Positions 1,135 through 17,955 of a stretch of 32,307 bases of DNA are shown here, in pieces (positions within the stretch are counted from its first letter, which is position 1; each line of letters begins with the position of its first letter). The stretch is taken from assembly GCA_964476985.1 (NCBI GenBank), contig CAYZDB010000002.1, positions 1 through 32,307 of the forward strand, written 5' to 3'. The translations under genes and the position numbers were made by a program. The stretch comes from an uncultured Acidobacteriota bacterium. GTDB taxonomy: Bacteria > Acidobacteriota > Polarisedimenticolia > J045. The notes under the pieces were generated by a model. It saw only the letters and a program-made list of their open reading frames with translations, had not been told where the DNA came from and did no database searches.

Positions 1135-1201
1135 CGCGCGTTCCTCCGGGAAACCGCGCCGATTCTGCGCCTCCCGCCCGAGTTCCGGCGACGGCGAACC
1201 G

Positions 1202-1262
1202 CTCCCTACTTCGCCTTAATATCGCCTTGGCGTTCCTAACTCTCCTGTTAGCATCTAGGAAC
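1202..1262. promoter_or_regulatory. AT-enriched repeat patch in a divergent promoter: TCGCCTT x2 at 11-bp spacing, then GTTCCTA-N17-TAGGAAC inverted repeat
   Basis: TCGCCTT at 1211-1217 and 1222-1228; GTTCCTA at 1232-1238; TAGGAAC at 1256-1262; TCCCTA at 1203-1208. It shares the TAGGAAC core with the 19869-19912 array. Confidence 0.45.
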
Positions 1263-1330
1263 CGGGCCCACCGGGTCCCCCCATCCCGGGGTTCCCGCGC
1301 GGCCGCGGCGCCACGCCGGGAGACCGATCC

Positions 1331-3097: not shown

Positions 3098-3111
3098 GGG
3101 AGGAGACGACG

Positions 3112-4245: not shown

Positions 4246-4248
4246 GCG

Positions 4249-5316
4249 TTGGAACCCGAAATCGTCGACCTGCGCTCCGACACGGTGACGCTGCCCTCGC
4301 CCGCGATGCGCGAGGCGATGGTGGCCGCGCCGGTCGGCGACGACGTCTTCTCCGAGGACCCGACGATCAACGCGCTTGAGGAGCTGGCGGCCGAGTTGAC
4401 CGGCAAGGAAGCCGGGCTGTTCGTCCCCGCCGGCTGCATGGCGAACCTGATCGCGCAGATGGTCCACGTCCGGCGCGGCGACGAGGTCGTGCTGGGGGCC
4501 GGCGCGCACACCGTGCTGCACGAGGTCGGCGCGGGGGCGGCGATCGCCGGGGTCCAGTACAGCGTGATCCCCGGCAACGGCCTGTTCACGGCCGACCAGG
4601 TCGAGGAGCGGGTCAAGGCGCCGACCTTCCACACCCCGGGGACCGGCCTGGTCTGGATCGAGAACTCCCAGAACGCGGGGGGCGGGCTGATCTTCCCGCA
4701 GCCCGAGGTCGAGAAGATCGCGGCGGTCTGCCGCCGGCACGGGCTGCCGCTGCACCTCGACGGCGCGCGGATGTTCAACGTCGCGGTCGCGAGCGGGAAG
4801 AGCGCGGCGGAGATTGCGGCCCCCTTCGACTCGCTGTCGTTCTGCCTGTCCAAGGGGCTGGGCGCGCCCGTCGGCTCGGTGCTGTGCGGGACGAAGGCCT
4901 TCCGCGTCGCAGCCCACCGGCTGCGCAAGATGCTGGGGGGCGGGATGCGGCAGGCCGGGATCGTCGCGGCCGCCGGGATCTACGCGCTGCGGCACAACGT
5001 CGAGCGGCTGGCGGAGGACCACTCCCGGGCGCGGCGCCTGGCCCACGCCCTGGCCCCCTCGCCGCACCTGCGGGTCGACCCGGCCGCGGTGCAGACCAAC
5101 ATCGTGGTGGCGCGGCTCCCCGCCGGGGAGGCCGAGGAGCTGGTGGCGCGCTGCGAGCGCCGCGGGGTGCGGTTCCTGGACCTCGACCGGCGGCGCGTGC
5201 GGCTGGTGACGCATCTCGACGTCGACGGGCCCGGGATCGAGCGGGCCGCGAAGGTGATCGCCGAAGAGGCCGCGGGGCTGGCGCTCGCGTCTCACGGCCG
5301 GAGGACGGACCCATGA
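4249..5316 (+). CDS. ltaE: Low-specificity L-threonine aldolase (PLP, beta-eliminating lyase family)
   Basis: TTG start at 4249 lies 8 nt after GGAGGG (4235-4240). N-terminus EIVDLRSDTVTLPSPAMREAMVAAPVGDDVFSEDPTINALEE, plus ..ENSQNAGGG.. and ..FCLSKGLGAPVGSVLCG (PLP-Lys region), match the LtaE/PF01212 pattern. Confidence 0.85.
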   Translation: MEPEIVDLRSDTVTLPSPAMREAMVAAPVGDDVFSEDPTINALEELAAELTGKEAGLFVPAGCMANLIAQMVHVRRGDEVVLGAGAHTVLHEVGAGAAIAGVQYSVIPGNGLFTADQVEERVKAPTFHTPGTGLVWIENSQNAGGGLIFPQPEVEKIAAVCRRHGLPLHLDGARMFNVAVASGKSAAEIAAPFDSLSFCLSKGLGAPVGSVLCGTKAFRVAAHRLRKMLGGGMRQAGIVAAAGIYALRHNVERLAEDHSRARRLAHALAPSPHLRVDPAAVQTNIVVARLPAGEAEELVARCERRGVRFLDLDRRRVRLVTHLDVDGPGIERAAKVIAEEAAGLALASHGRRTDP

Positions 5317-5792
5317 CCCGGAAAACGATCGTGCTGACCGCACTGCTGTTCGCGCTGACGGCCGCCACGGCCGCGTCGCAGGACGCCCCCACGGGCGACA
5401 TCAAGACCGCGCGCGGCCTGCTCGCCGCGGAGCGGCAGACGCTGGTCGGGAAGAACCTCGCCCTGACGCCGGAGCAGGCGCAGAAGTTCTGGCCGCTCTA
5501 CCTGCAGTACCGCGGCGAGATGATGCGGATCGGCGATCGCGCGGTCGAGCTGCTCGAGACCATGACGAAGAGCGCCGACGCGATGGACGACAAGACCGCG
5601 CAGGGGATCCTCAAGGAGTACCTGTTCCTCAAGCAGCAGGAGTGGGAGCTGAAGTCGCGCTGGCGTGGCCGCTTCGAAACGGCGATCCCGCCGGCCAAGG
5701 TCCTGCGCTTCTACCAGATCGAGAACACGATCGACACCACGGTCGCGTCCGAGGTCTCGGGGATGACGCCGCTGGTGCTGCCGAAGAAGTAG
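5313..5792 (+). CDS. Small secreted/periplasmic helical protein with one LTXXQ motif (Spy/CpxP-like at best); function unknown
   Basis: ATG 5313 overlaps the ltaE stop (ATGA) and lies 7 nt after GGAGGA (5300-5305). Signal peptide: MTRKTIVLTALLFALTAATAASQ. LALTPEQAQKF carries an LTXXQ motif. It is in frame inside track ORF 4884..5792, whose 5' part is an alternative frame of ltaE. Confidence 0.7.
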   Translation: MTRKTIVLTALLFALTAATAASQDAPTGDIKTARGLLAAERQTLVGKNLALTPEQAQKFWPLYLQYRGEMMRIGDRAVELLETMTKSADAMDDKTAQGILKEYLFLKQQEWELKSRWRGRFETAIPPAKVLRFYQIENTIDTTVASEVSGMTPLVLPKK

Positions 5793-6357
5793 GCCGACCG
5801 GGGCGGCGCGGCCTGGCGGTGCTCGGCTGCCGGCCACGGGAAGGCGACCGAGGCAGCAGTCTGCGCTCCTGGTGGGATCAGGCCCATCGCCGGCGCGGCA
5901 CACCACGCGCGGGATGCACTCGGTACGCTGCTTCGGGGGTCGATGGTCCGGCGAATGTCGCAGACCCATTGAGTGCGGGAAAGGCTTGTCAAAGTGCGAC
6001 TCACTGGTCGCCGATCTGTTGCCGCGGACTGCCCTGCTGGCGCCGTCCTGTAAGTGTGACAACGTGTGAATCCTGCGAACTCGTCACGACGCTCCCCTTG
6101 CCTTTGCGATCCGGTCAGCGTCCAATCGTGACGAAACAAGGGGGCCGCGCACGACGGGACCGGCTGGCCGGCTCCGGTGAGAGGGTGTAGTGCTCACGGC
6201 GGAATCACCTCGTTGGTGGCCCTCGCGAGCATCCGCCAGGGGCTCCGCGTATCGCGATGAACCGAACGTTGGTCGGTCCGTCGGTCCGGAAGCGGCTCCG
6301 ACCCTTGCGGCGCCCGCCCACCGCGCGTTGCGGCCGGCCCAGTGCGACTTGGGCACT

Positions 6358-6389
6358 GTCCGAGTCAGCGCGGAGTCGGGCGCTCGGAC
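6358..6389 (+). promoter_or_regulatory. Hairpin in the rhs 5' leader, 11 nt upstream of the SD
   Basis: GTCCGAG (6358-6364) pairs with CTCGGAC (6383-6389), leaving an 18-nt loop. Function is unknown. Confidence 0.25.
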
Positions 6390-6410
6390 TGCAGAAGTCT
6401 AGGAGGGGAG

Positions 6411-6503
6411 ATGAAGAACGACCACAATCGACGGCGCATCGAACGCGGCCACGCGTTCGGCCTGCTGCTGTTCCTCATGATCCTGCCCGTCTGCGCGTTC
6501 GCG
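6411..6503 (+). other. Predicted Sec signal peptide of the Rhs protein (AFA/VA cleavage); not a canonical lipobox
   Basis: A positively charged n-region (RRRIER) is followed by the hydrophobic core FGLLLFLMILPV and then CAFA-VAQ. LPVC does not fit the L-[AS]-[GA]-C lipobox. Confidence 0.6.
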
Positions 6504-9500
6504 GTCGCGCAGGAGTCACCGCCCCCTCCCGCGGCGCCGCCGGGGGGTGGAGAGGACCCTCCTGGCGGCGGCGGTACCGGTGGCGTGTCCTCCATCACGG
6601 ATCTCACCGTCTACGATCACCTCAGCCTCGTTGCGCGAGCGCCGGGAATCCCCGAGGGATCGATCTTCGCAGGATTCGAGAACTCCGAGTCGGTCCAGGC
6701 GTTCAGCGGGAACCTCCTCGTCACGCACCCGAGCAGCCCCTCGTTTCCACTCGACGGAGGCGGCAGCTTCAGCCTTTCGCGCAGCTACAACAGCTCGCGG
6801 ACCCTGGAGATCGCGAACAGGGGCGCCGACGATGTCTACAAGCGATTCGCGCACGGCCGAAGCTGGGTCGGATACGGTTGGACGATGCATCTGGGGCGGG
6901 TCTTCAAGCGCGCAAAGATGCCGGACCGCAAGGAGCAAGACCACCTGAATGAGCTCTACTGTTATCACGACCGGGAGTTCGTCTTCGAGGATGGGGCGGG
7001 TACGCAAACGGTGTTTAACGAGAAGGAGCCGGACCCGGTGCGGTCTGCCGTTCAAGAACGCCCGATTCTCAAGGTTCGGTTCTTTCGGAAGCCAGGACAG
7101 GAATGCGAGTTCGGAAGTCGCCGGCCGCTCTGGTGCGATACCCCCAACCGCTCGTCGCTGCCCGAATGCGACCACTTCGACAATGACTGCGAGACGACGA
7201 CGGACGGCACGGCCCACTATGAGGTCACGCTGGAAGATGGCTCGATCCTTCGGCTGGAGAAGCGGGTCGACGAAGTTACGAACGACCTGGGCTTCATCAA
7301 GAACGCCGACCGCAGCGGCTGGTACACCACGCGCATCACGTTCCTCTCCGGCGCGGCGCTTCGAGTGGCGTATCACGACAGCACGGCGTTTCCCGAAGCC
7401 ATCTACAAGGTGCAGTCGGAACGTGATCAGACAGTCACGATCCAAACGACTCTGTGCGCGTCCGACGCCCATTGCTGCGCACCCGGCGCAGCCTGCAGCG
7501 CCGGCTCGGGCCTTACGGGCCTCTTGAAGACCGTCACGGCAACGGGACCAGGCGGCCAGACGGTCACCTACGAATACTCATATGAAGCCATGTCTCTCAA
7601 CGATGTCGGCGGACCGACGACTGTTCCCGTGCTGCGGCAGGTCAAGCTACCGGTGGTCGGAGGACAGAGCGCCGGGTCGATCCAGTACACCTACCGACCC
7701 AGCTATCAGCCGGAGGGCGCCGGGCCGGGCGAGCCGGGGACGGGTCCGCTCCTCGAGCGCCTGATCTATCCGCTGAATGGCGAGGCGAAGTACGAATACG
7801 GCGCGTGGTACTGCGGTCCCAAGAAGTCCGGCGCACCGTCGGAAACCTACGAGTGCTATCAGCCCGGGTCGCGCCGGTGCTTTGGAGTGACCGGTCGCAC
7901 CCTCTTCCCCGCCGGCAGCGGTGGCACCGAACCACCGGCTCGCGCCGATTGGCGCTGGGACCGGGACATCTCCTACACGGGGCTCTGCCCGGCGAGCAGC
8001 GGTAACTCATGTCAACCCGCCTTCGCAGAGAACAACCGATTCGTGATGCGCGGTCCTGACGGACGGACGACAATCAGCGAGTTCGAGTCACCCGTTGCAT
8101 GCGGTTTGGGAATCAACAAACTCGTGGGACGCATCAAGGCGGAGGAGTCCTATGACGGCGATGGCACGGCAGTGGCCACCCGCCTGCGTCGTGTCACCCA
8201 CGCCTACATGTATCCGCTGGAGCAGGCCGTCGAGACGGAGTTCTACGACGGACCCTCGGCCTGCGACGATGGGGTGGCAGCCAGTCCCGCACGGATGCGC
8301 ACCGAGCGCTTCGAGACGAGCGAGTGGGGCGAGTGGAACCTGACGGTCGTGAGCGGCGACTACCTGCCGGCAGAGGTCAAGCGCCGGTCGTACGTCGCGC
8401 ACGACGATCCGAAGACCATGCCCCCGTCCCGGCTCGAGAAGCATGTCGTGGGCCGGTTCGGGCGGGCCTATGTGGAAGAAGGCCGTTTCCAAGATCCTGG
8501 ACGCTACGAAGTGATGTACTGGCACGAGGGAGATCTCGGCTACGGCGGTGAATACAAGGGCCGACTGCTGCAGGTGGCGGCCGTCGCGTCCTATCAGACC
8601 GTCGGAACGACCATCGACACGACGGCCAATCCTCCGGCCGTGCAGACACCGGAGCCCCCGAGCACTCCGGAATCGCCCCCGAACCTGCGTTCAGTGCTCA
8701 GTTACGACGCCTCGAAGGGCAATCTGGCCCAAGTCGTGTTTTCCGGAGGAGACTCGAACGCGACGTACACCGTCGACTACACCTGGGACCAGGCGATGGC
8801 CAAGACGATGAAGCTGACGGCCTTGACCTACAACAGCCGCGAGATCGTCCCCGATCGAGGAGCGGTCTCGGCAGCGATCGATCCGAACGGCCTCCGCACC
8901 GATTTCGGCTGGGACGCCCTGGGCCGGATCAAGAGCCTCACCCCGCCCGGACCCGAGTACGCGACGCGAGTGGCCTATCCGTCGTTGCTCGAGACCCGCG
9001 TCATCCGTTCGCCAGGCGCGGAAACCGCGCCCACGACCGATCCGGAGCAGGTGTACTCCGACCAGCGTTACGACGGTCTCGGCCGGACAATCGAGCGACG
9101 TAAGACGGTGCAGGGCTGGACGGCGCTGCAGGTCGTCCGGTATGACGCTCTCGGCCGCGAGATCTTCGTCTCCGAGTGGCTGACCCAGTCCGAATTCGAC
9201 ACGGCACCGAAGATCGTGTGGCAAGACGCCATGGATCCGGATGGAACGGGCCCACGAAGTTGGAGCCACAAGGTCGTCGACATCCCGACGAAGGACGGGC
9301 GCCCGTGGGGCACCGTGACCTACTACGGCGTGCCGTCGGCGACGGCACCCGACAACCCGCTTCGCGCCATCCCCGACGGCCTCGGCCGGGTCCGTCGCGT
9401 CGTTCAGGCCGACGGCTCGATCGTCGACACCGAGTACTGCGGCCCGCACGAGACGGTGACCGTGCACGGGGTGGACCGCAACGGCGATGGCGTTGCAGCG

Positions 9501-12500
9501 GAGACGTCCATCACGAAGTACTGGAAGGATGGGCTCGGCCGGCTGGTACTGGTCGACACCGACGTCCGGGCCGGAGGCGCGGCCGGGGACGGGGCCGACG
9601 CGGTCTACCGCTTCGACCCACGCGGCAAGGTCCGTGCCGTCCACCTAGTGTCGCAGCTTCCGGCGGACGCTTTCAACCAGTGGCGAAATCCGGACTGGAC
9701 TCCGGCGAATCCCCAGACGCGGACGTTCGAATACGACGCGCTCGGCCGGTTGCGGCGGGCCACGAACCCGGAGAAGGGTCTGGAGGAGTTCCATGCCTAC
9801 GACGTCTGGGGCAACCTCCTGGCCTGGACGGACGAGCTGGGACGCCAGCGCGGGTACCACTTCCGCAACACGTTCGACGGCGCAGGCCGACTGACGAAGA
9901 CGGAGCGCTGGCGGGCGGCCTACGGGACCGCGGGGACGCCAAGCGACGTGGAGCGTCTCGGCAGCAACGGGACCTTCGAGGGCACATGGCCCGGGGCCTG
10001 GGTCGAAGGGACGATCGACGGCTCGAACAACTTCAAGCCAGCGACGACCTCGTGGGAGGCCGTAGCCTACGGAGCAACGTCCTGCTTCAAGGCGCCCCCC
10101 GTCGGGGGCGGAATGCGCGGCCTGCACCTCGGCGGCACGGCGTGCACGTACGACGCCGCCGACCGCGGGCGGGAAGTGGCCCGAATCGCGGTCACGGGCG
10201 TGACCCGAGACGACCTGCTCAGTTTCAAGTACTGGCGGCAGGTGCGGGAGCAGAGCGGCGGCTCGCGCGACGCCCTCGAGGTCTGGGTGACGCGGCAGTC
10301 GCCGGACGGCGCTTCGATCCTGCCGCGGCGCGTGGTGTTCAGGATGTCGGAATCGCACGCATCCTACGCGAAGTGGATCCAGAGCCCCGGCGTCGCGCCG
10401 GGGGACTTCTACAGTCCCGCGGACTGGCCGGAAGGGACGACGCGCGATCTCTTCGTCTACTTCGTGTTCGAGAAGGGGGACGACGTCAGCTCCGGTCTCG
10501 GGCTGGGGGTGCTGATCGACGACGTCACGCTCGGCCGCAAGGGGGTGGAGACACTGGAACAGACCACCTACGACACCGACGTCTGCAGCGGGAGCGAGGG
10601 GGGCGACGCCTGCCTCGAGGGCGCCAGCACGGTCAATGCGTACAAGGACAAACCGGCCAAGGTGGCGTCGTACCAAGATGGCCGGAAGGTGCTGGAGCGG
10701 CGCTTCGTGTACCGCGGCCTGAACGGCCGCCTCTCGGGCGTGCGTACGCTGTTCGACTGGCGCGGGATGGCGCGGGACAATCATCCCGAGGACTGGACGA
10801 GCGTGGTCTGGAACGCGACCTGGAACAGCCACGGCCTGCCCGCCGACCTGGTGGCGCCTTATGCGGCGGCGGCCGGCAAGCGACGCTACGCGCAGCTCTA
10901 CTACGGCACGCTGCTGCGCCGGATCACGAGCGGCACGACGCCGCTGCTGGTCGCGGAGGACGGGCTGGACGGCGTCTACTACGACGCCGCCGGCGAGCCG
11001 ACCGAGTTGCGCTTCGCCAACGGTGCGGGGACGGCGATCGCGCGGGACGCCCAGCACCGGCCGCGGTCGTACGCGGTCTGGGGCTCGCCGACCACCGAGA
11101 GGCCCTTCTGGGCGAGCGGGAACTACACCTTCGACGGCGCGGGGAACATCCTCGCGATCGGGACGCAGCGCTTCGGCTACGACGGCGCCTCGCGGCTGAC
11201 GCACGCCGAGCTGCTGCCGCAGGCGCAATCCCCGACGACGCTGACCTTCGACGTCGTGAACTGGACCTACGATCTCTACGGGAACATGACCGGGCAGACG
11301 CTCGTCGGCAGCTCGGCGGCCACCCCCCCGCCCCTGACGTTCCAGCACACCTACGGTGCCGCCGGCCCCGGCAACCACAACCAGGTCACGACGTCCGGCT
11401 TCGCCTACGACGGCAACGGCAACACCCGTCGCTTCACCGGCCAACTCGGCCCCGCGGACGCCGTCGGCGCACTCTGGGACTCCCAGAACCGCCTGACGGC
11501 GTTCGTCCAGGGCGACCCCTGGGCCGGCAGCGCACCCGGCGAGACGTACGCCTACGACGCCGACGGCTACCGCTTCCTGCGGCTCTCGCTCGACAACACG
11601 GGCAAGGCGCTGCTGTCGGTGCGCGATGGCGAGGGCCGGACGCTGTCGGAGTTCGTGGACGAGCCGAGCGGCGGGCTGAAGCTGGTGCGGGACTTCGTCT
11701 ACGGGGTCGGCCAGCTGCTGGTCGAGCGCCAGGTGACCAGCGCGCCGCCGCAGATGCTGCTGGGCAGCCCGCTGGTCTCCGGCGGGAGCTATCACCTGAC
11801 GGTGACCGACGGCAGCGCGGCGCCGAGCTACGAGCTGGACATCCGCACCGCGTCCGGCTTCCAGAACCGCCTGACCGGCCTGCAGCGCGACGCGGCCCAG
11901 CAGCTCCACGTGCCGGAGAGCGCCTTGTCCCCCGGCGAGACGAACGTCCTGCGGCTGCGGGCCGAGGGCGAGCCGGGGACCGGCTACTCGGTGCCGGTCT
12001 CGCTGCTGTACGATCCGAGCGTGACGCCCTCCTCCCCGAACCAGATCCGCGCGCTGGGGGTCTCGCGCAACGGGACCGACCTGGTGCTGCGCTGGGCGCT
12101 CTTGACCGAGAACGGCAAGCAGACCAGGGTGAGCTTCCGGCGGGCCGACACCGGGGCGACCTACGTGCTGACGCCGCAAGCGCTGGCGTCGTCGATCAAG
12201 TCGTACACGCTCTCGTCGCAGGCTCTGGCCTCGCCGTGCGGGGACTTCCTGCTGAGCCAGGTGCTGCAGTCCAACGAGACCGGCCCGACCCCGCCGCTCC
12301 GGAACCCGAGCAGCCAGAGCGGGACGCAGGGGACGGAGATCGATCCCTGCGACGACCCGCCGCCCGACCCAGCTCCGGGCCCGCGCTTCACCAACGCCTA
12401 CCACCACCGCGATCACCTGGGCACGCTGCGCAACGTAACCGGCGACGGGGGCTACCTGGCCGCGGCCTACGACTGGTACCCGTACGGGACGCGGATGAGA

Positions 12501-13250
12501 ACGGGCCTCGCCGGCTCCGCCTCGGACAGCCGGCGGGTGTTCACGGGGCACGAGCGGGATCTGGCGACGGGGCTGGATTACATGATGGCGAGGTACTACG
12601 GACCAAGCCTCGCCCGCTTCCTGAGCACCGATCCCGGAGACGACACCTACCTCGACGCCCCGCAGAGCTGGAGCGAGTATTCCTACGTTCGCGATCGTCC
12701 CATCGGCGCGAACGACCCGACGGGCAGATTCACGGATTGGGGACTGACCCGCGAGTTCCGCGTGAGCCCGCCCGCGGTGGCGGCGACAGGTGGCACCCCC
12801 CAGGCCGCCTCTCAGACGATCGAGCAGATTGCCAAGTCGACGTCGTCGGTGGCGAATACGGTCGGTTGCGGAGCACTACTTGGGGCGGTCGTCGCGGCAA
12901 TCGTTCCGGGGGGACAAGCAGCGGTTCCTCCCCTCCTGTCAGTCGCTGGCACGATGGGGACGATCTCGCTCGGCAGTGATGTCGCCGCGGCCGCAGCGGT
13001 CCCGTCAACCGATAACGTCAACACCGTCATTGCCGATGTGGTGACGACAGCAGCGGTGGCGGGTGCGCTCAGGGGCGCGGAAGCACAGATGAGCCCCGGC
13101 TCCCGGGTGGCTGTCGAGACAGCTGCGATTCCTGCTGCGACGGCAGTGACGAGCATCGCGGAATCTGTGGAGGATGCCGTCGACGACCGAGGGAAGACCG
13201 ACCCTGCTGCTCCCCAGCGGGAACCGGCAGACAAGGAACAGAAGAAGTAG
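6411..13250 (+). CDS. Rhs/YD-repeat polymorphic toxin (2279 aa) with N-terminal Sec-type signal peptide, RHS core and a novel C-terminal toxin tip
   Basis: ATG 6411 directly follows AGGAGGGGAG (6401-6410). Signal-like N-terminus: MKNDHNRRRIERGHAFGLLLFLMILPVCAFA/VAQ. Shell-start motif: FSLSRSYNS...GYGWTMHLG. There are at least ten YD repeats, including FGWDALGR ~8904, YDGLGR ~9067, YDALGR ~9139, YEYDALGRL ~9727, FDGAGRL ~9880, YTFDGAGN ~11125, FGYDGASRL ~11175, FAYDGNGN ~11400 and YAYDADGY ~11551. RHS-associated core: YHHRDHLGTLR..WYPYGTR..FTGHERDLATGLDYMMARYY..YSYVRDRPIGANDPTGRF, ending at 12731. Confidence 0.95.
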   Translation: MKNDHNRRRIERGHAFGLLLFLMILPVCAFAVAQESPPPPAAPPGGGEDPPGGGGTGGVSSITDLTVYDHLSLVARAPGIPEGSIFAGFENSESVQAFSGNLLVTHPSSPSFPLDGGGSFSLSRSYNSSRTLEIANRGADDVYKRFAHGRSWVGYGWTMHLGRVFKRAKMPDRKEQDHLNELYCYHDREFVFEDGAGTQTVFNEKEPDPVRSAVQERPILKVRFFRKPGQECEFGSRRPLWCDTPNRSSLPECDHFDNDCETTTDGTAHYEVTLEDGSILRLEKRVDEVTNDLGFIKNADRSGWYTTRITFLSGAALRVAYHDSTAFPEAIYKVQSERDQTVTIQTTLCASDAHCCAPGAACSAGSGLTGLLKTVTATGPGGQTVTYEYSYEAMSLNDVGGPTTVPVLRQVKLPVVGGQSAGSIQYTYRPSYQPEGAGPGEPGTGPLLERLIYPLNGEAKYEYGAWYCGPKKSGAPSETYECYQPGSRRCFGVTGRTLFPAGSGGTEPPARADWRWDRDISYTGLCPASSGNSCQPAFAENNRFVMRGPDGRTTISEFESPVACGLGINKLVGRIKAEESYDGDGTAVATRLRRVTHAYMYPLEQAVETEFYDGPSACDDGVAASPARMRTERFETSEWGEWNLTVVSGDYLPAEVKRRSYVAHDDPKTMPPSRLEKHVVGRFGRAYVEEGRFQDPGRYEVMYWHEGDLGYGGEYKGRLLQVAAVASYQTVGTTIDTTANPPAVQTPEPPSTPESPPNLRSVLSYDASKGNLAQVVFSGGDSNATYTVDYTWDQAMAKTMKLTALTYNSREIVPDRGAVSAAIDPNGLRTDFGWDALGRIKSLTPPGPEYATRVAYPSLLETRVIRSPGAETAPTTDPEQVYSDQRYDGLGRTIERRKTVQGWTALQVVRYDALGREIFVSEWLTQSEFDTAPKIVWQDAMDPDGTGPRSWSHKVVDIPTKDGRPWGTVTYYGVPSATAPDNPLRAIPDGLGRVRRVVQADGSIVDTEYCGPHETVTVHGVDRNGDGVAAETSITKYWKDGLGRLVLVDTDVRAGGAAGDGADAVYRFDPRGKVRAVHLVSQLPADAFNQWRNPDWTPANPQTRTFEYDALGRLRRATNPEKGLEEFHAYDVWGNLLAWTDELGRQRGYHFRNTFDGAGRLTKTERWRAAYGTAGTPSDVERLGSNGTFEGTWPGAWVEGTIDGSNNFKPATTSWEAVAYGATSCFKAPPVGGGMRGLHLGGTACTYDAADRGREVARIAVTGVTRDDLLSFKYWRQVREQSGGSRDALEVWVTRQSPDGASILPRRVVFRMSESHASYAKWIQSPGVAPGDFYSPADWPEGTTRDLFVYFVFEKGDDVSSGLGLGVLIDDVTLGRKGVETLEQTTYDTDVCSGSEGGDACLEGASTVNAYKDKPAKVASYQDGRKVLERRFVYRGLNGRLSGVRTLFDWRGMARDNHPEDWTSVVWNATWNSHGLPADLVAPYAAAAGKRRYAQLYYGTLLRRITSGTTPLLVAEDGLDGVYYDAAGEPTELRFANGAGTAIARDAQHRPRSYAVWGSPTTERPFWASGNYTFDGAGNILAIGTQRFGYDGASRLTHAELLPQAQSPTTLTFDVVNWTYDLYGNMTGQTLVGSSAATPPPLTFQHTYGAAGPGNHNQVTTSGFAYDGNGNTRRFTGQLGPADAVGALWDSQNRLTAFVQGDPWAGSAPGETYAYDADGYRFLRLSLDNTGKALLSVRDGEGRTLSEFVDEPSGGLKLVRDFVYGVGQLLVERQVTSAPPQMLLGSPLVSGGSYHLTVTDGSAAPSYELDIRTASGFQNRLTGLQRDAAQQLHVPESALSPGETNVLRLRAEGEPGTGYSVPVSLLYDPSVTPSSPNQIRALGVSRNGTDLVLRWALLTENGKQTRVSFRRADTGATYVLTPQALASSIKSYTLSSQALASPCGDFLLSQVLQSNETGPTPPLRNPSSQSGTQGTEIDPCDDPPPDPAPGPRFTNAYHHRDHLGTLRNVTGDGGYLAAAYDWYPYGTRMRTGLAGSASDSRRVFTGHERDLATGLDYMMARYYGPSLARFLSTDPGDDTYLDAPQSWSEYSYVRDRPIGANDPTGRFTDWGLTREFRVSPPAVAATGGTPQAASQTIEQIAKSTSSVANTVGCGALLGAVVAAIVPGGQAAVPPLLSVAGTMGTISLGSDVAAAAAVPSTDNVNTVIADVVTTAAVAGALRGAEAQMSPGSRVAVETAAIPAATAVTSIAESVEDAVDDRGKTDPAAPQREPADKEQKK
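11549..12599 (+). repeat. Direct repeat copy A (inside main rhs), partner of 13656-14631
   Basis: Line-by-line alignment: offset 2107 before a 75-nt indel and 2032 after it. 11813-12499 is identical to 13845-14531 at all 687 positions. Confidence 0.95.
12732..13247 (+). other. Rhs C-terminal toxin tip 1 (172 aa), Ala/Val/Gly-rich, unassignable; candidate membrane-active toxin
   Basis: This is the sequence after DPTGRF: TDWGLTREF..VGCGALLGAVVAAIVPGGQAAVPPLLSVAGTMGTISLG..VIADVVTTAAVAGAL..VAVETAAIPAATAVTSIA..KEQKK. By my count it has 37 Ala and about 40% Ala+Val+Gly, with no His, no Tyr and one Cys. I see no recognisable nuclease, deaminase or ART motif. Confidence 0.6.
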
Positions 13251-13277
13251 CGTGATCATCGGCCGGAGTGCGACCAG

Positions 13278-13475
13278 ATGAGAGCTTGGATCCAGGTTCT
13301 TCTGCTCATTGCGCTTGGTGCTGCGGCCTTGTGCCTCGCCGCCCGCATTCGGGTACCTCCTGATGAGCCCGGGTCAGTGCTGTACCCGACCTATCGGTAC
13401 CTTAGGCTGATGTTGCTCGTCTCCGGGGGGGGTGCTCTCTTAGTGGCGGTGCGACTTGTGGCATTCCCTCCGTGA
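13278..13475 (+). CDS. 65-aa two-TM membrane protein; candidate cognate immunity protein for toxin tip 1
   Basis: ATG 13278 lies 9 nt after GGAG (13265-13268) and 27 nt after the rhs stop. Two hydrophobic helices: WIQVLLLIALGAAALCLAA and LRLMLLVSGGGALLVAVRLVAF. Position immediately 3' of a polymorphic toxin tip is the classical immunity location. Confidence 0.6.
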   Translation: MRAWIQVLLLIALGAAALCLAARIRVPPDEPGSVLYPTYRYLRLMLLVSGGGALLVAVRLVAFPP

Positions 13476-13518
13476 AGGCGACCAAAGAAGTTAGACGGCG
13501 TCAGGACGGTCAGCGATC

Positions 13519-15330
13519 TTGGCTTCGCTCGGTGACGCCGGCCATGTGCACCTCCGGCTTGCGTCCGGGCTACAGCGAACAGGCCGCATGTTCGATTTGA
13601 TTTCCGCCGGGCTGCGAATCCCACCGGCTTTGGCAAGGGGGCACCGTGCACAACCCGCCTACGACGCCGACGGCTACCGCTTCCTGCGGCTTTCGCTCGA
13701 CAAAGCCGGCAAGGCGCTGCTGTCGGTGCGCGACTGGGAGGGCCGGAGGCTGTCGGAGTTCGTGGACGAGCCCATCGGCGGGCTGAAGCTGGTGCAGGAC
13801 TTCGTCTGCGGGGTCGGCCAGCAGCTGATCGAGCGCCAGGTGACCAGCGCGGCGCCGAGCTACGAGCTGGACATCCGCACCGCGTCCGGCTTCCAGAACC
13901 GCCTGACCGGCCTGCAGCGCGACGCGGCCCAGCAGCTCCACGTGCCGGAGAGCGCCTTGTCCCCCGGCGAGACGAACGTCCTGCGGCTGCGGGCCGAGGG
14001 CGAGCCGGGGACCGGCTACTCGGTGCCGGTCTCGCTGCTGTACGATCCGAGCGTGACGCCCTCCTCCCCGAACCAGATCCGCGCGCTGGGGGTCTCGCGC
14101 AACGGGACCGACCTGGTGCTGCGCTGGGCGCTCTTGACCGAGAACGGCAAGCAGACCAGGGTGAGCTTCCGGCGGGCCGACACCGGGGCGACCTACGTGC
14201 TGACGCCGCAAGCGCTGGCGTCGTCGATCAAGTCGTACACGCTCTCGTCGCAGGCTCTGGCCTCGCCGTGCGGGGACTTCCTGCTGAGCCAGGTGCTGCA
14301 GTCCAACGAGACCGGCCCGACCCCGCCGCTCCGGAACCCGAGCAGCCAGAGCGGGACGCAGGGGACGGAGATCGATCCCTGCGACGACCCGCCGCCCGAC
14401 CCAGCTCCGGGCCCGCGCTTCACCAACGCCTACCACCACCGCGATCACCTGGGCACGCTGCGCAACGTAACCGGCGACGGGGGCTACCTGGCCGCGGCCT
14501 ACGACTGGTACCCGTACGGGACGCGGATGAGGACGGGGGTCGCCGGCTCCGCGTTGGACAGCCGGAGGGTGTTCACGGGGCACGAGCGGGACCTGGCGAC
14601 GGGGCTGGATTACATGATGGCGAGGTACTACTCGTCACCGGGGGGGACGTTCCTGTCGGTGGATCCCGGGGAGGACACGGATCTCGATGATCCCCAATCC
14701 TGGAATGCCTACAGCTACGTTCGTCGCGACCCGCTCGGTGGGAACGATCCTGACGGCAGATTCGGGAATCTCCTGGTCGGCTTCGTCGTCGGGGCGGCTG
14801 TCGAGGCCGGGTCGCAAGTCGTGGCGGGGATGTCGGAAGGAAAGGGCCTCATCGATTCCGTAAAGGGCATCGAGGGGAACAAGGTCCTCCTCAGTGCTGC
14901 GGTCGGAGGGGTGACTTCGGGCGTGAGCGCAATCCGCGCGATTGGATTGGCCGGCCGGCTCGCCGTGGAGGCCGCTGGCAATGTCGCCGAGGGAGCTCTG
15001 CATGCCCAAGTTGATGATGCCTCCTACGGGTCTGCGGAGGTCGTCGACGACGCCATCGTCGGAGCTGTAGCAGGAGTAGTCGGAGAGGGCACCGAACGCC
15101 TGACGCACGCCGTCGCACAACAGACGGACGCGGCGAAAAGCCTCGCCCACGACGCGAAGCGCCTGGAGAACATCGCCGACAAGGGGCGCCCGCGGGCGGC
15201 CCAGGAGTTGCGCGCACAGCAAGCCAAGGAGAAGGCGGCAAGCTACGGCTCGAAGCTCGCATCGGTCACCGGCGCAGCGGCGAGCAACCTAACGAGCGAG
15301 GCTGCAGGGAACAAGAAGAAACAACCGTGA
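13519..15330 (+). CDS. Orphan Rhs C-terminal cassette (last YD repeat + Ig-like insert + RHS core + alternative toxin tip); no signal peptide or shell, start uncertain, possibly silent
   Basis: The track ORF starts at TTG 13519, with an in-frame ATG at 13588; neither has a convincing SD. From 13656 it is homologous to 11549 onward of the main rhs (AYDADGYRFLRLSLD...). It has the same core, YHHRDHLGTLR..FTGHERDLATGLDYMMARYY, then diverges: SSPGGTFLSVDPGEDTDLDDPQSWNAYSYVRRDPLGGNDPDGRF ends at 14763. Confidence 0.7.
   Translation: MASLGDAGHVHLRLASGLQRTGRMFDLISAGLRIPPALARGHRAQPAYDADGYRFLRLSLDKAGKALLSVRDWEGRRLSEFVDEPIGGLKLVQDFVCGVGQQLIERQVTSAAPSYELDIRTASGFQNRLTGLQRDAAQQLHVPESALSPGETNVLRLRAEGEPGTGYSVPVSLLYDPSVTPSSPNQIRALGVSRNGTDLVLRWALLTENGKQTRVSFRRADTGATYVLTPQALASSIKSYTLSSQALASPCGDFLLSQVLQSNETGPTPPLRNPSSQSGTQGTEIDPCDDPPPDPAPGPRFTNAYHHRDHLGTLRNVTGDGGYLAAAYDWYPYGTRMRTGVAGSALDSRRVFTGHERDLATGLDYMMARYYSSPGGTFLSVDPGEDTDLDDPQSWNAYSYVRRDPLGGNDPDGRFGNLLVGFVVGAAVEAGSQVVAGMSEGKGLIDSVKGIEGNKVLLSAAVGGVTSGVSAIRAIGLAGRLAVEAAGNVAEGALHAQVDDASYGSAEVVDDAIVGAVAGVVGEGTERLTHAVAQQTDAAKSLAHDAKRLENIADKGRPRAAQELRAQQAKEKAASYGSKLASVTGAAASNLTSEAAGNKKKQP
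13656..14631 (+). repeat. Direct repeat copy B (5' part of the orphan cassette)
   Basis: Same alignment as copy A. The identical antisense track ORFs 12161..12394 and 14193..14426 independently confirm the 2032-nt offset. Confidence 0.95.
14764..15327 (+). other. Orphan toxin tip 2 (188 aa), glycine-zipper-like hydrophobic N-part plus charged helical tail; candidate membrane-active toxin
   Basis: GNLLVGFVVGAAVEAGSQVVAG..LLSAAVGGVTSGVSAIRAIGLAG..AIVGAVAGVVGEG.., then AKSLAHDAKRLENIADKGRPRAAQELRAQQAKEKAASYG. Small-xxx-small spacing recurs. There is no recognisable enzymatic motif and no sequence similarity to tip 1. Confidence 0.55.
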
Positions 15331-15986
15331 GGCGGTCTCGCGAGGTAGAAGGGCAAGGAGGCGACTCCTCGCAAGCGCGGCCGTGGCCCTTGCGTTGGCT
15401 CGGCTCGCTGCTGTTGGTGAGTGTGGTCCATATCGCAACACCGGCCCTCCTCGCGGAGGCGGGCTCTGCGGAATACGCACGGAGTCGCGATCAGCTGTTC
15501 GTTGTGTGCTTCATCGCATTCCTCCTATTCATCGTTCTCGTCTCATACCTACGGGGGCGAAGACGCGAGTTCTCGCAAACGCGGCGGTGGGACCTGCGCT
15601 GGATCGGCCCACTGCTGCTGGCGGGTTTGGTTTACCTCGCGACAAGGGCGCATCTCGCGGAGGCGGGATCCGCGGATTACGCCCGACGTCACGGCCGGCT
15701 CTTCACAGTGTGTCTGCTCGCGTTTCTCCTATTCGTAGTCCGAGTCAGTACTCGCCCGGCCCCCTCGTTGATCAAGGCGGCTCGTAGCGCCGACCAGAAG
15801 TCGGAGTACATCCGCGGTGGGTGGATGTCGATCGACCTGGCCTTGCTCCTGTCTGCGGCCGCGGCAGTATTCGTGCTGGATTGGAGTGGCTGGCGCGACT
15901 ATCTCGTACAGATCGGCGTGGTCTCGGCGCTCATAATTGTTCGCATCGTTGTCAGTCTCGTCCAACGGGCGTTGGGAAAGAAGTGA
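15327..15986 (+). CDS. 219-aa, about 6-TM membrane protein with internal tandem duplication; candidate immunity protein for orphan tip 2
   Basis: GTG 15327 overlaps the orphan stop (GTGA). Hydrophobic helices: WLGSLLLVSVVHIATPALLA, LFVVCFIAFLLFIVLVSYL, WIGPLLLAGLVYLATRAHLA, LFTVCLLAFLLFVVRVS, IDLALLLSAAAAVFVLDW, IGVVSALIIVRIVVSLV. A sampled block is low in GC (15481-15540: 31/60). The start codon is uncertain. Confidence 0.65.
   Translation: MRRSREVEGQGGDSSQARPWPLRWLGSLLLVSVVHIATPALLAEAGSAEYARSRDQLFVVCFIAFLLFIVLVSYLRGRRREFSQTRRWDLRWIGPLLLAGLVYLATRAHLAEAGSADYARRHGRLFTVCLLAFLLFVVRVSTRPAPSLIKAARSADQKSEYIRGGWMSIDLALLLSAAAAVFVLDWSGWRDYLVQIGVVSALIIVRIVVSLVQRALGKK
15378..15785 (+). repeat. Tandem 204-nt (68-codon) duplication inside the candidate immunity gene
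   Basis: Unit 1: RPWPLRWLGSLLLVSVVHIATPALLAEAGSAEYARSRDQLFVVCFIAFLLFIVLVS. Unit 2: RRWDLRWIGPLLLAGLVYLATRAHLAEAGSADYARRHGRLFTVCLLAFLLFVVRVS. The Trp codons sit at 15384 and 15588. Similarity is visible at DNA level too (ctcgcggaggcgggctctgcggaatacgc vs ctcgcggaggcgggatccgcggattacgc). Confidence 0.85.
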
Positions 15987-16083
15987 CCGCACACGGCGTG
16001 GTTCGCACGAGGTTGCCGGCCAGGCAGAGTGCGGCGGGGCGAAGTGGCGTTGAAGGCCCCGCGGACGCCATCGGCGGGCCGGG

Positions 16084-16542
16084 TCAGGAGCGCTTGCGAC
16101 TTCGCTCCAGCGCCCGAACGTCGGCAAGATCCTGCGCGCGCGCAGTGGCCCGCTTGGCTGCGAGCAGGTCGTCGAGGCCGATGATCTCGACCGGGACGTC
16201 CGCCCACCGCGCCTGGAGACGCCGCTCCCAGGCCGCCGGGAAGTCGACTCCCGGGATCGTGCGGAAGATCTCGACCCGAACGGGTGCGGCGCCCATCCAC
16301 ACGATGTCATTCGGCCCGGCACTCTGGAGTTCTGCGAGTGCGGCAGCCGGCGCGCCGAAGGCCCGGAGTGCCGCGAGAACGCGGGAGAGATTCGACGGCT
16401 CCTCGCCGATCCAGAGGCCGAGGTCTTTCGTGAAGCGCGGGCGGCCGTGGAACGCGACGGCGTAGCCGCCCACGACGAGGTACTCAGCGTTCGCCGCGGC
16501 GAGTGCCGAAAAGAGATCTCTCAAGTCGGGGTGGAGGTCCAT
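16084..16542 (-). CDS. Nucleotidyltransferase-fold (MNT/AbiEii-like, DUF-type) protein, candidate toxin-antitoxin-like component
   Basis: MDLHPDLRDLFSALAAANAEYLVVGGYAVAFHGRPRFTKDLGLWI carries the hhGG-x(n)-D-x-[DE] NTase signature region, but reads D-L-G where relatives as I recall them read D-x-D. GC3 bias supports the frame. Confidence 0.75.
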   Translation of the reverse strand: MDLHPDLRDLFSALAAANAEYLVVGGYAVAFHGRPRFTKDLGLWIGEEPSNLSRVLAALRAFGAPAAALAELQSAGPNDIVWMGAAPVRVEIFRTIPGVDFPAAWERRLQARWADVPVEIIGLDDLLAAKRATARAQDLADVRALERSRKRS

Positions 16543-16714
16543 CGTTGCCCTCGATTGCCCACGCCTCTTCGACCAACTGCCACGCGGCGGCCAGCCGCAT
16601 CTCGGGTGGCGCGGCGAGCCAGAACGCGATCTCCGCGTCGAGAGCCTCGGCCCCGTGGCGGACGCGCCCCGCGGTCCAGCCCGGGCGCGTTGCAGGGTTC
16701 CGTTCGATCGTCAT
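16484..16714 (-). CDS. 76-aa small protein, upstream partner of the NTase-fold gene (antitoxin-like)
   Basis: ATG is at 16714. GC3 is high until the 59-nt overlap with the downstream gene. The tail ..AAWQLVEEAWAIEG..PRLERSLFGTRRGER resembles the C-terminal RL[EQ]R-type tail of small partner proteins found upstream of such NTase genes. That is recollection, not verified. Confidence 0.5.
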   Translation of the reverse strand: MTIERNPATRPGWTAGRVRHGAEALDAEIAFWLAAPPEMRLAAAWQLVEEAWAIEGNDGPPPRLERSLFGTRRGER

Positions 16715-16803
16715 GCACTGATTCTAGCAGAGGCCCGGCGAGAAGACGGCTGCCACCTGGCTGCGCGAAACCCTGAGCGTCTCCGACCCACGGCGCCACG
16801 GGA

Positions 16804-17955
16804 TTAGCGCAGCCGCTCCCCGTCGATCCGGAACCTCGCCACCCGGTCCTCGAGCACGGTCACGCCGATCCCCGGCCCGTGCGGCACCTCGATGAAGCCG
16901 TCCGCGCCCAGCACCACCGGCGGCTCGACCAGGTCTTCGTGGAAGTAGCGGCGGGTCTCCGAGGTGTCTCCCGGCAGCATGAATCCCGGCACCGTCTGCA
17001 GGTGGATGTTGACCGCCCGGCCGATCCCGGTCTCGTCCATGCCGCCCGACCAGGCCGGGGCCCCGCGCGCGGCGCAGGCCGCGGCGATCCGGACCGACTC
17101 CAGGAGCCCCCCGACCCGCCCCTGCTTGATGTTGACGATCCGGCAGGCCCCCAGCTCGAGCGCGGCGCAGGCGTCGTCCAGCGAGTGGATCGACTCGTCG
17201 AGGCAGAGCGGGGTCGCCAGGTGCCGCTGCAGCGTCGCGTGCTGCACGATGTCGGCGTACGACAGCGGCTGCTCGATCATCGTCAGCCCGAAGGGGTCGA
17301 GCTGCGCCAGGTGGTCGGCGTCGGCCAGGCTGTAGTCGCCGTTGGCGTCGGCCATCAGCTGGATCTCCGGGAAGCGCTCGCGCACGGCGCGCACCCACTC
17401 CACGTCGCGGCCGCGCATGATCTTGATCTTGACCCGGTGGTAGCGGTGCCGGACCGCCTCGTCGACGGCGGCCAGCAGCGCCTCGACCGAGTCCTGCAGC
17501 CCGATGCTGATCCCCGACGGGATCGGCTTGCGGGGCGCGCCGAGCAGCTCGTGGAGCGGCTGGCCGGCGCGCTTCGCGAGCAGGTCGAGCAGCGCGTTCT
17601 CGATCGTCGCCTTGGCCATCCCGTGGCCGCGCACCCGGCGGAACCGCGCCGCGAGCGCCCCGACCGTCAGCCCCGGCTCGACGCAGGGCAGCAGGAAGTC
17701 GCGGAGGATGTGCCGCGCGGTGGTGGTCGTCTCGCTGGCGTAGTACGGGTCCGGATCGGCGACGCACTCCCCCCAGCCGACGAGGCCGCCGGCCTCGACC
17801 CGCAGCAGCACCGCCTCCTTGCAGGTCCAGGTGGCGACGCTGGTGCCGAACGGGCTGACGAAGGGGAGGCGCACCACGATCACGTCGACGCGGTCGAGCG
17901 CGGGGATCTCGAGCGCCTCGATCCGGTCGAGCGGCGACGGGGACGGCGGCGTCAT
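16804..17955 (-). CDS. menC: o-Succinylbenzoate synthase / N-acylamino-acid racemase family enzyme (enolase superfamily, MLE subgroup)
   Basis: KxK motif in RVKIKIMRG. Metal ligand contexts: LMADANGDY, MIEQPL, LCLDESI. Second catalytic Lys in IVNIKQGRVGG. No other men genes are in the window, so racemase versus OSBS remains open. Confidence 0.8.
   Translation of the reverse strand: MTPPSPSPLDRIEALEIPALDRVDVIVVRLPFVSPFGTSVATWTCKEAVLLRVEAGGLVGWGECVADPDPYYASETTTTARHILRDFLLPCVEPGLTVGALAARFRRVRGHGMAKATIENALLDLLAKRAGQPLHELLGAPRKPIPSGISIGLQDSVEALLAAVDEAVRHRYHRVKIKIMRGRDVEWVRAVRERFPEIQLMADANGDYSLADADHLAQLDPFGLTMIEQPLSYADIVQHATLQRHLATPLCLDESIHSLDDACAALELGACRIVNIKQGRVGGLLESVRIAAACAARGAPAWSGGMDETGIGRAVNIHLQTVPGFMLPGDTSETRRYFHEDLVEPPVVLGADGFIEVPHGPGIGVTVLEDRVARFRIDGERLR

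Follow-up and report, generated by a model that had tools for sequence, protein, structure and literature searches.

Positions 6411–15986 of a 32,307-nt stretch of DNA from an uncultured Acidobacteriota bacterium (contig CAYZDB010000002.1; the whole stretch is hereafter the window) hold a large Rhs/YD gene with a signal peptide, a small membrane-protein gene, an orphan core-plus-tip cassette, and a second membrane-protein gene. We consider it likely that these genes form a stand-alone polymorphic toxin locus of the Rhs/YD kind whose product is exported by Sec, and that the locus is carried on a lower-GC island of the genome and operates by the mechanism proposed below. The case is built on the leader of the main protein, on the shell and core behind it, and on a close relative in which the main gene runs into a different tip at the junction that separates the main and orphan copies here. 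The locus contains the following features (aa, amino acids; ORF, open reading frame; AF2, AlphaFold2; pLDDT and pTM, the local and global confidence values of its models; TM, transmembrane):

6411–13250 (+): putative main Rhs/YD polymorphic toxin gene, 2279 aa; ORF with a ribosome-binding site, RHS_repeat and TIGR03696 matches, and homologues.
6411–6512 (+): predicted signal peptide, aa 1–34; sequence features and a predicted signal peptidase I (SPI) site, AVA/QE (the slash marks the cut).
6513–6593 (+): Pro/Gly-rich linker, aa 35–61; composition, and AF2 pLDDT of 22–27 across residues 1–60.
6594–6920 (+): N-terminal plug-like domain, aa ~62–170 (AGFEN.E.V…NGNL…GWTMHLGR); the densest block of invariant columns in the family alignment.
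6690–9710 (+): N-terminal half of the YD shell, aa ~94–1100, modelled as all-beta with TcB-like geometry; AF2 with the family alignment, pTM 0.69.
9909–10565 (+): MAM/jelly-roll-like beta-sandwich inserted in the shell, aa ~1167–1385; residues 18–207 of the second AF2 model, pLDDT 77–90.
11748–12320 (+): tandem FN3-like domains just ahead of the core, aa ~1780–1970; AF2 pLDDT 80–90, Foldseek matches to fibronectin FN3 tandems.
11813–12599 (+): direct repeat, copy A; 99.1% identical to 13845–14631; candidate recombination substrate and tip-swap junction.
12477–12731 (+): Rhs-associated core; TIGR03696, aspartyl autoprotease motifs, cleavage predicted after DPTGRF.
12732–13247 (+): tip 1, 172 aa, Ala/Gly/Val-rich, with one strongly hydrophobic segment and a charged tail.
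13278–13475 (+): candidate immunity gene 1, 65 aa, two hydrophobic helices; GGAG 9 nt upstream of the ATG.
13656–15330 (+): orphan cassette, consisting of a 5′-truncated shell end, the FN3 pair (with a 25-aa deletion), core, and tip 2; blastn against the main gene, and TIGR03696.
13845–14631 (+): direct repeat, copy B; 787-nt partner of 11813–12599.
14764–15327 (+): tip 2, 188 aa, with a Gly/Ala-rich N-terminal part and a helical, charged C-terminal part; four homologues.
15327–15986 (+): candidate immunity gene 2, 219 aa, about six TM segments; its GTG start overlaps the tip 2 stop (GTGA).

All the features that an earlier sequence-only reading of this DNA had described for the locus are present where it placed them, beginning with the 2279-aa YD protein whose Rhs core ends in DPTGRF. 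The frame of the main gene is open from 6342 to 13250 (2302 codons), and the ATG at 6411, preceded by GGAGGGGAG, gives the 2279-aa product. Its leader reads MKNDHNRRRIERGH-AFGLLLFLMILPVCAF-AVA/QE, in which a positive n-region leads into a hydrophobic core of 16 residues and then an AxA (small-x-small) cleavage motif. We looked for a good lipobox ([LVI][ASTVI][GAS]C) in this leader and found none, the AxA site followed by Q standing there instead. By these sequence features the leader is a Sec type-I-like signal peptide, as the sequence-only reading had held in preference to a PAAR-type, type VI secretion system (T6SS) N-terminus. The profile search that it had proposed points the same way: PF05593 and TIGR03696 are matched, and PAAR is unmatched at E ≤ 5. 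RHS_repeat (PF05593) matches with an E-value of 4e-14 in Pfam, TIGR01643 matches in NCBIfam, and the NCBIfam Rhs core profile TIGR03696 matches aa 2023–2105 at 5e-14. Pfam and NCBIfam scans of the whole main protein and of its segments, at E ≤ 5, return only RHS_repeat, the Rhs core, and weak DUF6531 and DUF6443 similarity, with no toxin, PAAR, SpvB, TcdB-mid, NHL, or two-partner secretion (TPS) domain. For PAAR, SpvB, TcdB-mid, NHL, and TPS, the scan at this threshold covered aa 1–1000.

The core carries the catalytic motifs expected of a self-cleaving Rhs protein: D2074 (in STDP), D2102 (in NDPTG), and R2069, five residues ahead of the first aspartate. These D and R residues are invariant or nearly invariant in the family alignment. 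The core, which closes with DPTGRF at aa 2102–2107, aligns with the cores of TccC2, TccC3, YenC2, SGS1, and Tse5. There are 24 cysteines in the mature protein, and Cys-rich loops are conserved in the family consensus.

Behind the leader and linker lies the plug-like domain (aa ~62–170), the best conserved part of the protein, with weak similarity to DUF6531. Beta- and Gammaproteobacteria, Undibacterium, Polaromonas, Halioglobus, and Hahella among them, also have this domain in Rhs proteins, and these likewise start with classical signal peptides. An exhaustive HMMER search of 1.84e9 representative sequences recovers it in 96 clusters at 50% identity. With few exceptions, the full-length members have it start at residue ~20–80, right after the hydrophobic leader, and there is therefore no space for a PAAR domain ahead of it, only for the leader. 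Judged by this domain order, signal-peptide Rhs proteins form a coherent class that spans several phyla and are not an isolated case.

The AF2 shell models are all-beta and match Rhs, Tc, and teneurin shells at a Foldseek probability of 1.00. For the model of aa ~94–1100, the Foldseek TM-score (TMq) is 0.43–0.46 against TcB and BC cocoons (4igl YenB, 4o9x, and 6suf TcdB2-TccC3), 0.16–0.20 against T6SS Rhs cages, and 0.11–0.17 against teneurins and bacterial teneurin-like proteins (TLPs; 0.17 for 9ifo). In the model, then, the N-terminal half of the protein appears to resemble the TcB part of BC cocoons more than it does T6SS Rhs cages. A second model (aa 1181–2279) shows further shell, the MAM-like sandwich, and two FN3-like domains. 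Foldseek matches of the MAM-like insert are to the MAM region of meprin alpha, and the insert is 34–47% conserved across the family loci. The FN3-like pair is found in every family member and is repeated in the orphan cassettes.

The arrangement downstream of the shell, namely a variable tip and a small membrane ORF followed by an orphan core and tip with a second membrane ORF, had also been described by the sequence-only reading, and it is supported by the profile matches, by the repeats within the locus, and by a close relative. The orphan (a 603-codon ORF; TIGR03696 match at 3.5e-14) has no signal peptide or shell of its own. Its first part, 13656–13857, is 93% identical to 11549–11750 of the main gene and is followed by a 75-nt deletion. 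The 787-nt repeat comes next, and the main and orphan copies diverge inside the core, after positions 12599 and 14631. The orphan is conserved in the close relative, whose locus (L004) has the same layout at about 90% DNA identity, with assembly frameshifts. The main gene of the relative is collinear with the window up to 12599, exactly the main/orphan breakpoint, and then continues into a different tip. Tip 1 and its 65-aa ORF are jointly absent from the relative, and the orphan position there keeps tip 2, 87% identical in aa sequence, together with the six-TM ORF (74%). By this comparison, one C-terminal tip can replace another at a fixed point within the core. Between the window and the relative, dN/dS is 0.30 for tip 2, 0.50 for its membrane ORF, and 0.26 for the shell; since the values for tip 2 and its ORF are below 1, the orphan is maintained as coding sequence, and these ratios indicate purifying selection on the orphan cassette, both on tip 2 and on its membrane ORF.

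Several smaller features accompany these repeats. The 25 codons missing from the orphan at 13857 (PQMLLGSPLVSGGSYHLTVTDGSAA; 11751–11825) lie at the start of the first FN3-like domain, with a short SA(P/A)PS repeat bordering the gap. The window has three homopolymers of at least 7 nt, all in the Rhs locus: C7 in the shell (11323–11329), G8 in the 65-aa ORF (13425–13432), and G7 nine bases past the main/orphan breakpoint (14640–14646). These runs could be slippage or recombination hot spots, or sites prone to sequencing error. In the close relative, the main tip (15900–17300; …VLVFKSASGGPHVATYVG…) is unrelated to tip 1, and many frameshifts there suggest a noisy assembly; upstream, at 1–5005, lies a second, fragmented Rhs locus with DUF6531, RHS_repeat, and TEN_YD-shell fragments.

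Neither tip has a match in sequence searches of Pfam, NCBIfam, or the PDB, in keeping with the sequence-only reading, which had found both unlike known enzymatic toxin domains. Both are rich in Ala and Gly (31–34%) and contain hydrophobic segments, and the ORFs that follow them encode proteins with two and about six TM segments. These downstream membrane ORFs are candidate immunity genes that co-vary with the tips in the comparison with the relative. The first has the lowest GC content in the locus (0.61) and no homologue in the fetched family loci. Tip 2 has conserved motifs (TSG.SA, AAG.VAE…HA, and RL.NIA..GRPRAAQ), and two further relatives of it (43–47% identity) directly follow the DPDGRF site of other Rhs cores. 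Similarity between tip 1 and tip 2, and between tip 2 and a Gly/Ala-rich segment of the homologue in ‘Acidobacteria bacterium Mor1’, is not significant, and neither tip contains the WxSIP motif of the Tox-WTIP toxin domain. The 219-aa membrane ORF has a tandem internal duplication of 192 nt (15351–15542 and 15555–15746, 72% identity), in which a two-helix unit is copied.

A search with the whole protein finds about a dozen full-length homologues at 35–48% identity and one at 86%. In a scan of one genome per species, full-length relatives come almost only from Acidobacteriota, both metagenome-assembled genomes (MAGs) and the complete genome of Mor1, and several family genomes carry two copies. 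One MAG labelled ‘Deltaproteobacteria’ (L023) matches at 29% identity along almost all of the N-terminal length, and a second (L024) matches only in the plug-like domain (aa 64–172). All full-length homologues have an N-terminal leader ending in A-x-A before a Q or A, and TEN_YD-shell (PF25023) is recorded for several of them. Past the DPxG site, the tips are unrelated and differ in all 10 homologues examined; Pfam recognises DUF6765 alone among these ten. Behind a hydrophobic stretch rich in Gly and Ala, the Mor1 tip shows a deaminase signature (CAE…PVCEAC), and an orphan cassette downstream of homologue P0006 (L046, 17002–17961) contains a Tox-HNH-EHHH nuclease domain. Two or three orphan cassettes made of FN3, core, and tip are present in other loci of the family (L007, L009, and L015). 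The unrelated tips, DUF6765, the deaminase signature, and the HNH orphan therefore mark a genuine polymorphic toxin family. What would be new here, as far as the sequences go, is a small, almost Acidobacteriota-only family with an SPI-type leader, a BC-sized cage decorated with MAM and FN3 domains, and uncatalogued tips.

The loci of two homologues have neighbours worth recording. In Mor1 (L001, CP011806.1; 8064–9537 and 10001–17023), a SUKH (SMI1_KNR4) gene of immunity type, a DUF3592 gene, and a weak T2SSG pseudopilin-like gene lie ahead of the homologue, and the genome has a second paralogue at 1.38 Mb (L016). Beside homologue P0004 (L003, 2538–6976) are two Peptidase_C39 proteins (an ABC transporter and a VKOR fusion), two ORFs of 41–42 aa, and a LytTR two-component system; this bacteriocin-type export cluster is probably a separate antagonism system.

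The sequence-only reading had placed the locus among housekeeping and metabolic genes with no T6SS, PAAR, or VgrG context in the window, and both statements agree with our scans. No PAAR, VgrG, Hcp, Eag/DUF1795, TPS, or TcA gene was found among the scanned window ORFs, and by profile the other window genes are metabolic or regulatory. They include a pyridoxal-phosphate decarboxylase, cytochrome bd-like and cytochrome c proteins, a beta-eliminating lyase, an MR/MLE enzyme, a GAF protein, a GH38 mannosidase-like protein, a methyltransferase, and subunits of pyruvate:ferredoxin oxidoreductase (POR). Around eight homologous loci, precomputed Pfam annotation likewise lacks T6SS, TPS, and Tc genes; no neighbour is conserved, and the contexts of these loci are mutually unrelated. 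The window as a whole is about 70% G+C. The G+C fraction of the Rhs locus is 0.61–0.68, against 0.71–0.74 in the immediate flanking genes and 0.69–0.74 in all other measured genes (POR, 0.689), and G+C at third codon positions (GC3) is about 0.82 in the Rhs locus versus 0.96–1.0 in other genes. G+C is lowest in the two membrane ORFs. Low GC and GC3 are the usual signature of an acquired island, and by composition the Rhs locus appears to be such a lower-GC island. A promoter and terminator scan of the locus was uninformative, its results being at shuffle level.

Knowledge of Gram-negative Rhs mechanisms derives nearly entirely from T6SS effectors and Tc toxins. Tse5 of Pseudomonas aeruginosa combines a hydrophobic, membrane-depolarising tip with a membrane-embedded immunity protein. 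Like Tse5 (PDB 8cp6), the present protein has an Rhs cage and a homologous core, which is the best match of the family profile; unlike the present protein, Tse5 is T6SS/VgrG-dependent, lacks a Sec leader, and forms a smaller cage (TMq 0.16), and the tips share no sequence similarity. Pore-forming tips more generally (Tse5-CT, Tox-WTIP, and the CdiA-CT EC93 type) share with the two tips here a hydrophobic, small-residue-rich composition and an association with membrane-embedded immunity candidates. WapA has a Sec signal peptide, Rhs repeats, and a C-terminal toxin with cognate immunity; it is a Gram-positive, wall-associated protein with cell-wall-binding domains. The main protein here resembles WapA in its Sec signal peptide, Rhs repeats, and C-terminal tip with an adjacent candidate immunity gene, and differs in that its host phylum is diderm, no wall-binding Pfam domain is detected, and its shell has about double the length. 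WapA of Bacillus subtilis and Streptococcus suis is described as T6SS-independent (PMC12704120).

Signal-peptide Rhs toxins have been recognised before. Table 1 of Zhang, de Souza, Anantharaman, Iyer & Aravind 2012 (PMC3482391) includes a ‘T2SS/Sec-dependent, signal peptide’ trafficking class with RHS repeats, Acidobacteria among its hosts. The same paper lists Tox-WTIP, a pore-forming tip of two TM helices, with RHS repeats, and describes Imm-CdiI and Imm17, two-TM immunity proteins, separately (PMC3482391). The present locus agrees with that class in having a signal peptide as its sole trafficking signature, RHS repeats, cassette exchange, and an adjacent candidate immunity gene (PMC3482391). 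The class, as tabulated, is a computational category without a delivery mechanism, and the present tips match none of the domains named there; a TcB-like shell with MAM and FN3 domains and a plug-like domain are likewise not among the features given for it (PMC3482391). More recently, experiments by Raoelijaona et al. 2026 (PMC13018210) showed that Sec-dependent teneurin-like YD-shell proteins from six phyla, including Acidobacteriota, are polymorphic toxins with immunity genes. A hydrophobic C-terminal domain (CTD) of a BiTLP was toxic only if sent to the periplasm, where it rendered E. coli propidium-permeable (PMC13018210). Gram-negative TLPs have a signal peptidase II (SPII)/lipoprotein signal, and a TIP domain is found in 96% of TLPs (PMC13018210). 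The sequence-only reading had held that Rhs delivery without a T6SS is poorly understood outside Gram-positive WapA and insecticidal Tc/teneurin-like systems. Raoelijaona et al. state the delivery of TLPs to be unknown (PMC13018210); the rarity that the sequence-only reading implied was overstated, as both papers show (PMC3482391, PMC13018210). The literature on T6SS in Acidobacteriota and on T6SS-independent Gram-negative Rhs proteins yielded nothing decisive in our search.

We propose that the precursor passes through Sec and that its leader is cut at AVA/QE (between A34 and Q35). The shell would fold outside the cytoplasm under oxidative conditions, which agrees with the 24 cysteines and Cys-rich loops. 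The core would cleave itself after DPTGRF and keep the 17-kDa tip in the cage, and the MAM-like and FN3 domains may serve as outward-facing binding modules. Once released, the tips would act on or through the cytoplasmic membrane of the target, where the two downstream integral-membrane proteins would shield the producer. We favour membrane-acting tips because of tip composition and hydrophobic segments, the polytopic cognate ORFs, and two precedents, the BiTLP CTD and Tox-WTIP. Finally, a 2032-bp deletion between the direct repeats could replace tip 1 and its immunity gene by tip 2, switching the toxin type.

A number of observations weigh against this proposal. The HNH and deaminase tips in the family must, given what they are, reach the target cytoplasm, so membrane action does not hold for the family as a whole. 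Among the conserved residues of tip 2 are polar ones (E, H, and several R), which may form an enzymatic or binding site and not a pore. A word-seeded search of 5.8e9 proteins, which remote relatives may escape, finds no homologue of tip 1, and selection on this tip is therefore not assessable. The number of glycine zippers ([GAS]xxx[GAS]xxx[GAS]) in the tips lies within that of composition-matched shuffles (p about 0.2) and was therefore dropped as evidence. For the core and tip, AF2 pLDDT is below 35, the tip being helical but unreliable, so no fold is inferred for the tips. Export beyond the inner membrane is a further difficulty: on a rough estimate, the folded cocoon (a cage of about 240 kDa) seems too large for the secretin of the type II secretion system (T2SS), which leaves the outer-membrane step without candidate machinery, and the sequence holds nothing that explains the outer-membrane exit of a folded cage or its opening. 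Lastly, the absence of T6SS genes is local, covering the 32-kb window and about 10-kb flanks of the eight homologues.

Most characterised Gram-negative Rhs toxins are T6SS effectors (cf. PDB 7q97, 8cp6, 8qja, and 8uxt), and the present one might be T6SS cargo loaded in trans, its hydrophobic stretch being a prePAAR-type anchor with an Eag chaperone and the vgrG and PAAR genes lying elsewhere in the genome. We find this very improbable. There is no PAAR match at E ≤ 5 and no AARxxDxxxH prePAAR motif; the conserved domain follows only about 27 disordered residues after the hydrophobic core; and the canonical n-h-c leader with its AxA site before Q is conserved across family and phyla. Neither the window nor the eight homologous loci contain a DUF1795, VgrG, or Hcp gene, and the Cys count and Cys-rich loops of the mature part argue against this route, as does the low TMq to T6SS Rhs cages (0.16–0.20). 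A prePAAR reading of the N-terminus was rejected on the absence of motif and PAAR and on the canonical, cleavable-type leader. The structural models raise a different prospect: the protein could be a fused BC subunit of a Tc-like (ABC) toxin that uses a TcA-like pentameric translocator encoded elsewhere, is released by lysis (type 10 secretion), and is possibly directed at eukaryotes. The N-terminal 1100 aa superpose best on TcB and BC cocoons (4igl, 4o9x, and 6suf), the shell of about 2000 aa is similar in length to that of TcdB2-TccC3 fusions, and the core protease is homologous, aligning to TccC2, TccC3, and YenC2. The YenB-YenC2 and TcdB2-TccC3 cocoons differ, however, from the present locus with its Sec leader and its grammar of toxin, immunity gene, and orphan. 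To our knowledge, Tc components have no Sec leaders, whereas the leader is always present in this family. SpvB and TcdB_toxin_mid are undetected at E ≤ 5, no TcA-like gene occurs across the nine loci, and orphan cassettes, adjacent immunity-like ORFs, and an HNH orphan are hallmarks of interbacterial polymorphic toxins. The chance that it is a Tc subunit therefore seems to us very small.

That the protein is a bacterial TLP displayed on the cell surface, with adhesion or kin recognition as its main role, seems to us improbable. Like TLPs, which are reported in Acidobacteriota (PMC13018210), it would be Sec-dependent and has a YD shell, a polymorphic CTD of about 15–19 kDa, and an adjacent candidate immunity gene. 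As in the TLPs (9ifo and 9pt5), DPxG…DPxG motifs are predicted to drive autoproteolysis; the small polymorphic CTD would sit inside the cage, as theirs does, and the candidate immunity gene stands where theirs has an immunity gene, immediately downstream; PF25023 is recorded on several homologues, and the MAM-like and FN3 inserts are of adhesion type. Yet these inserts, like the orphan arrays, also set the family apart from TLPs. No NHL/TEN_NHL or FN-plug profile matches, TMq to 9ifo is 0.17, the family profile matches 9ifo and 9pt5 just in the Rhs core, and the leader is SPI-like and not of the SPII/lipoprotein type seen in Gram-negative TLPs. Membership of the TLPs was rejected because NHL and FN-plug are undetected. 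A doubt of another kind concerns the tips, which might be no toxins at all: they could be membrane-insertion or anchor segments, a role proposed for the C-terminal helices of mosquito SGS1, or translocation helpers whose catalytic domain has been lost, with unrelated small membrane-protein ORFs downstream. Neither tip matches a toxin family, and the Mor1 protein has a similar Gly/Ala-rich hydrophobic stretch ahead of its deaminase-signature domain. Moreover, the best PDB sequence matches are mosquito SGS1 and SGS4 (8fjp and 9on3), whose large decorated YD shell comes with receptor-type domains and, past the core, a helical region rich in Gly and Ala (PMC9935623), and the alignment reaches into this post-core region. 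The similarity to SGS1 past the core is low-confidence and compositional, though, and weak outside the core generally; the SGS proteins are secreted eukaryotic proteins of about 3300 aa without immunity or orphan grammar. Each tip here behaves as a unit with its ORF: tip 2 and its ORF are kept together with dN/dS below 1, and tip 1 and its ORF are absent together from the close relative. The stop of tip 2 overlaps the start of its ORF, and tip 2 homologues directly follow the DPDGRF of other cores. We accordingly regard non-toxin tips as improbable too, and return to a Sec-exported polymorphic toxin as the preferred account.

If the Sec-exported toxin account holds, a bolder version of it is possible though doubtful: a one-polypeptide device, in which a BC-sized cocoon exported by Sec and SPI leaves a diderm cell by an exit route new to Rhs proteins, binds its target through its own MAM and FN3 domains, and releases tips that are membrane-active or, in relatives, cytoplasm-acting, with no T6SS, TcA, CdiB, or lipoprotein anchor. 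Were this true, an N-terminus of signal peptide plus plug domain (about 100 clusters in several phyla) would mark a distinct and unstudied mode of Rhs secretion and delivery. We know of no outer-membrane export route, receptor, or cage-opening trigger for signal-peptide Rhs proteins of diderms. The locus sharpens this delivery question, already recognised in the literature, without answering it, and its origin in an uncultured, poorly studied group of Acidobacteriota limits immediate testing. It nonetheless offers a compact and complete example, with a main gene, an orphan, two membrane immunity candidates, and a natural tip swap in a relative, as well as an N-terminal marker domain, candidate receptor-binding inserts, and two tip families outside current toxin catalogues.

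Other genes of the window deserve brief mention. Directly upstream of the Rhs gene, a 159-aa protein (5313–5792, +) has a signal peptide and weak similarity to LTXXQ/Metal_resist (CpxP/Spy-like periplasmic chaperones); as a conserved secretion partner it was rejected, since it is not found next to the homologues. Just after the second membrane ORF lies a DUF6036-type nucleotidyltransferase ORF (16084–16542, −), with an E-value of 9e-5, just below the Pfam cutoff, which is typical of small mobile or toxin-antitoxin-like cargo at an island edge. Farther downstream, a small protein with Cys_rich_FGFR repeats (21786–22199, +) and the 1184-aa GH38 alpha-mannosidase-like protein (23633–27187, +), which by eye has an apparent N-terminal leader, are not related to the Rhs locus.

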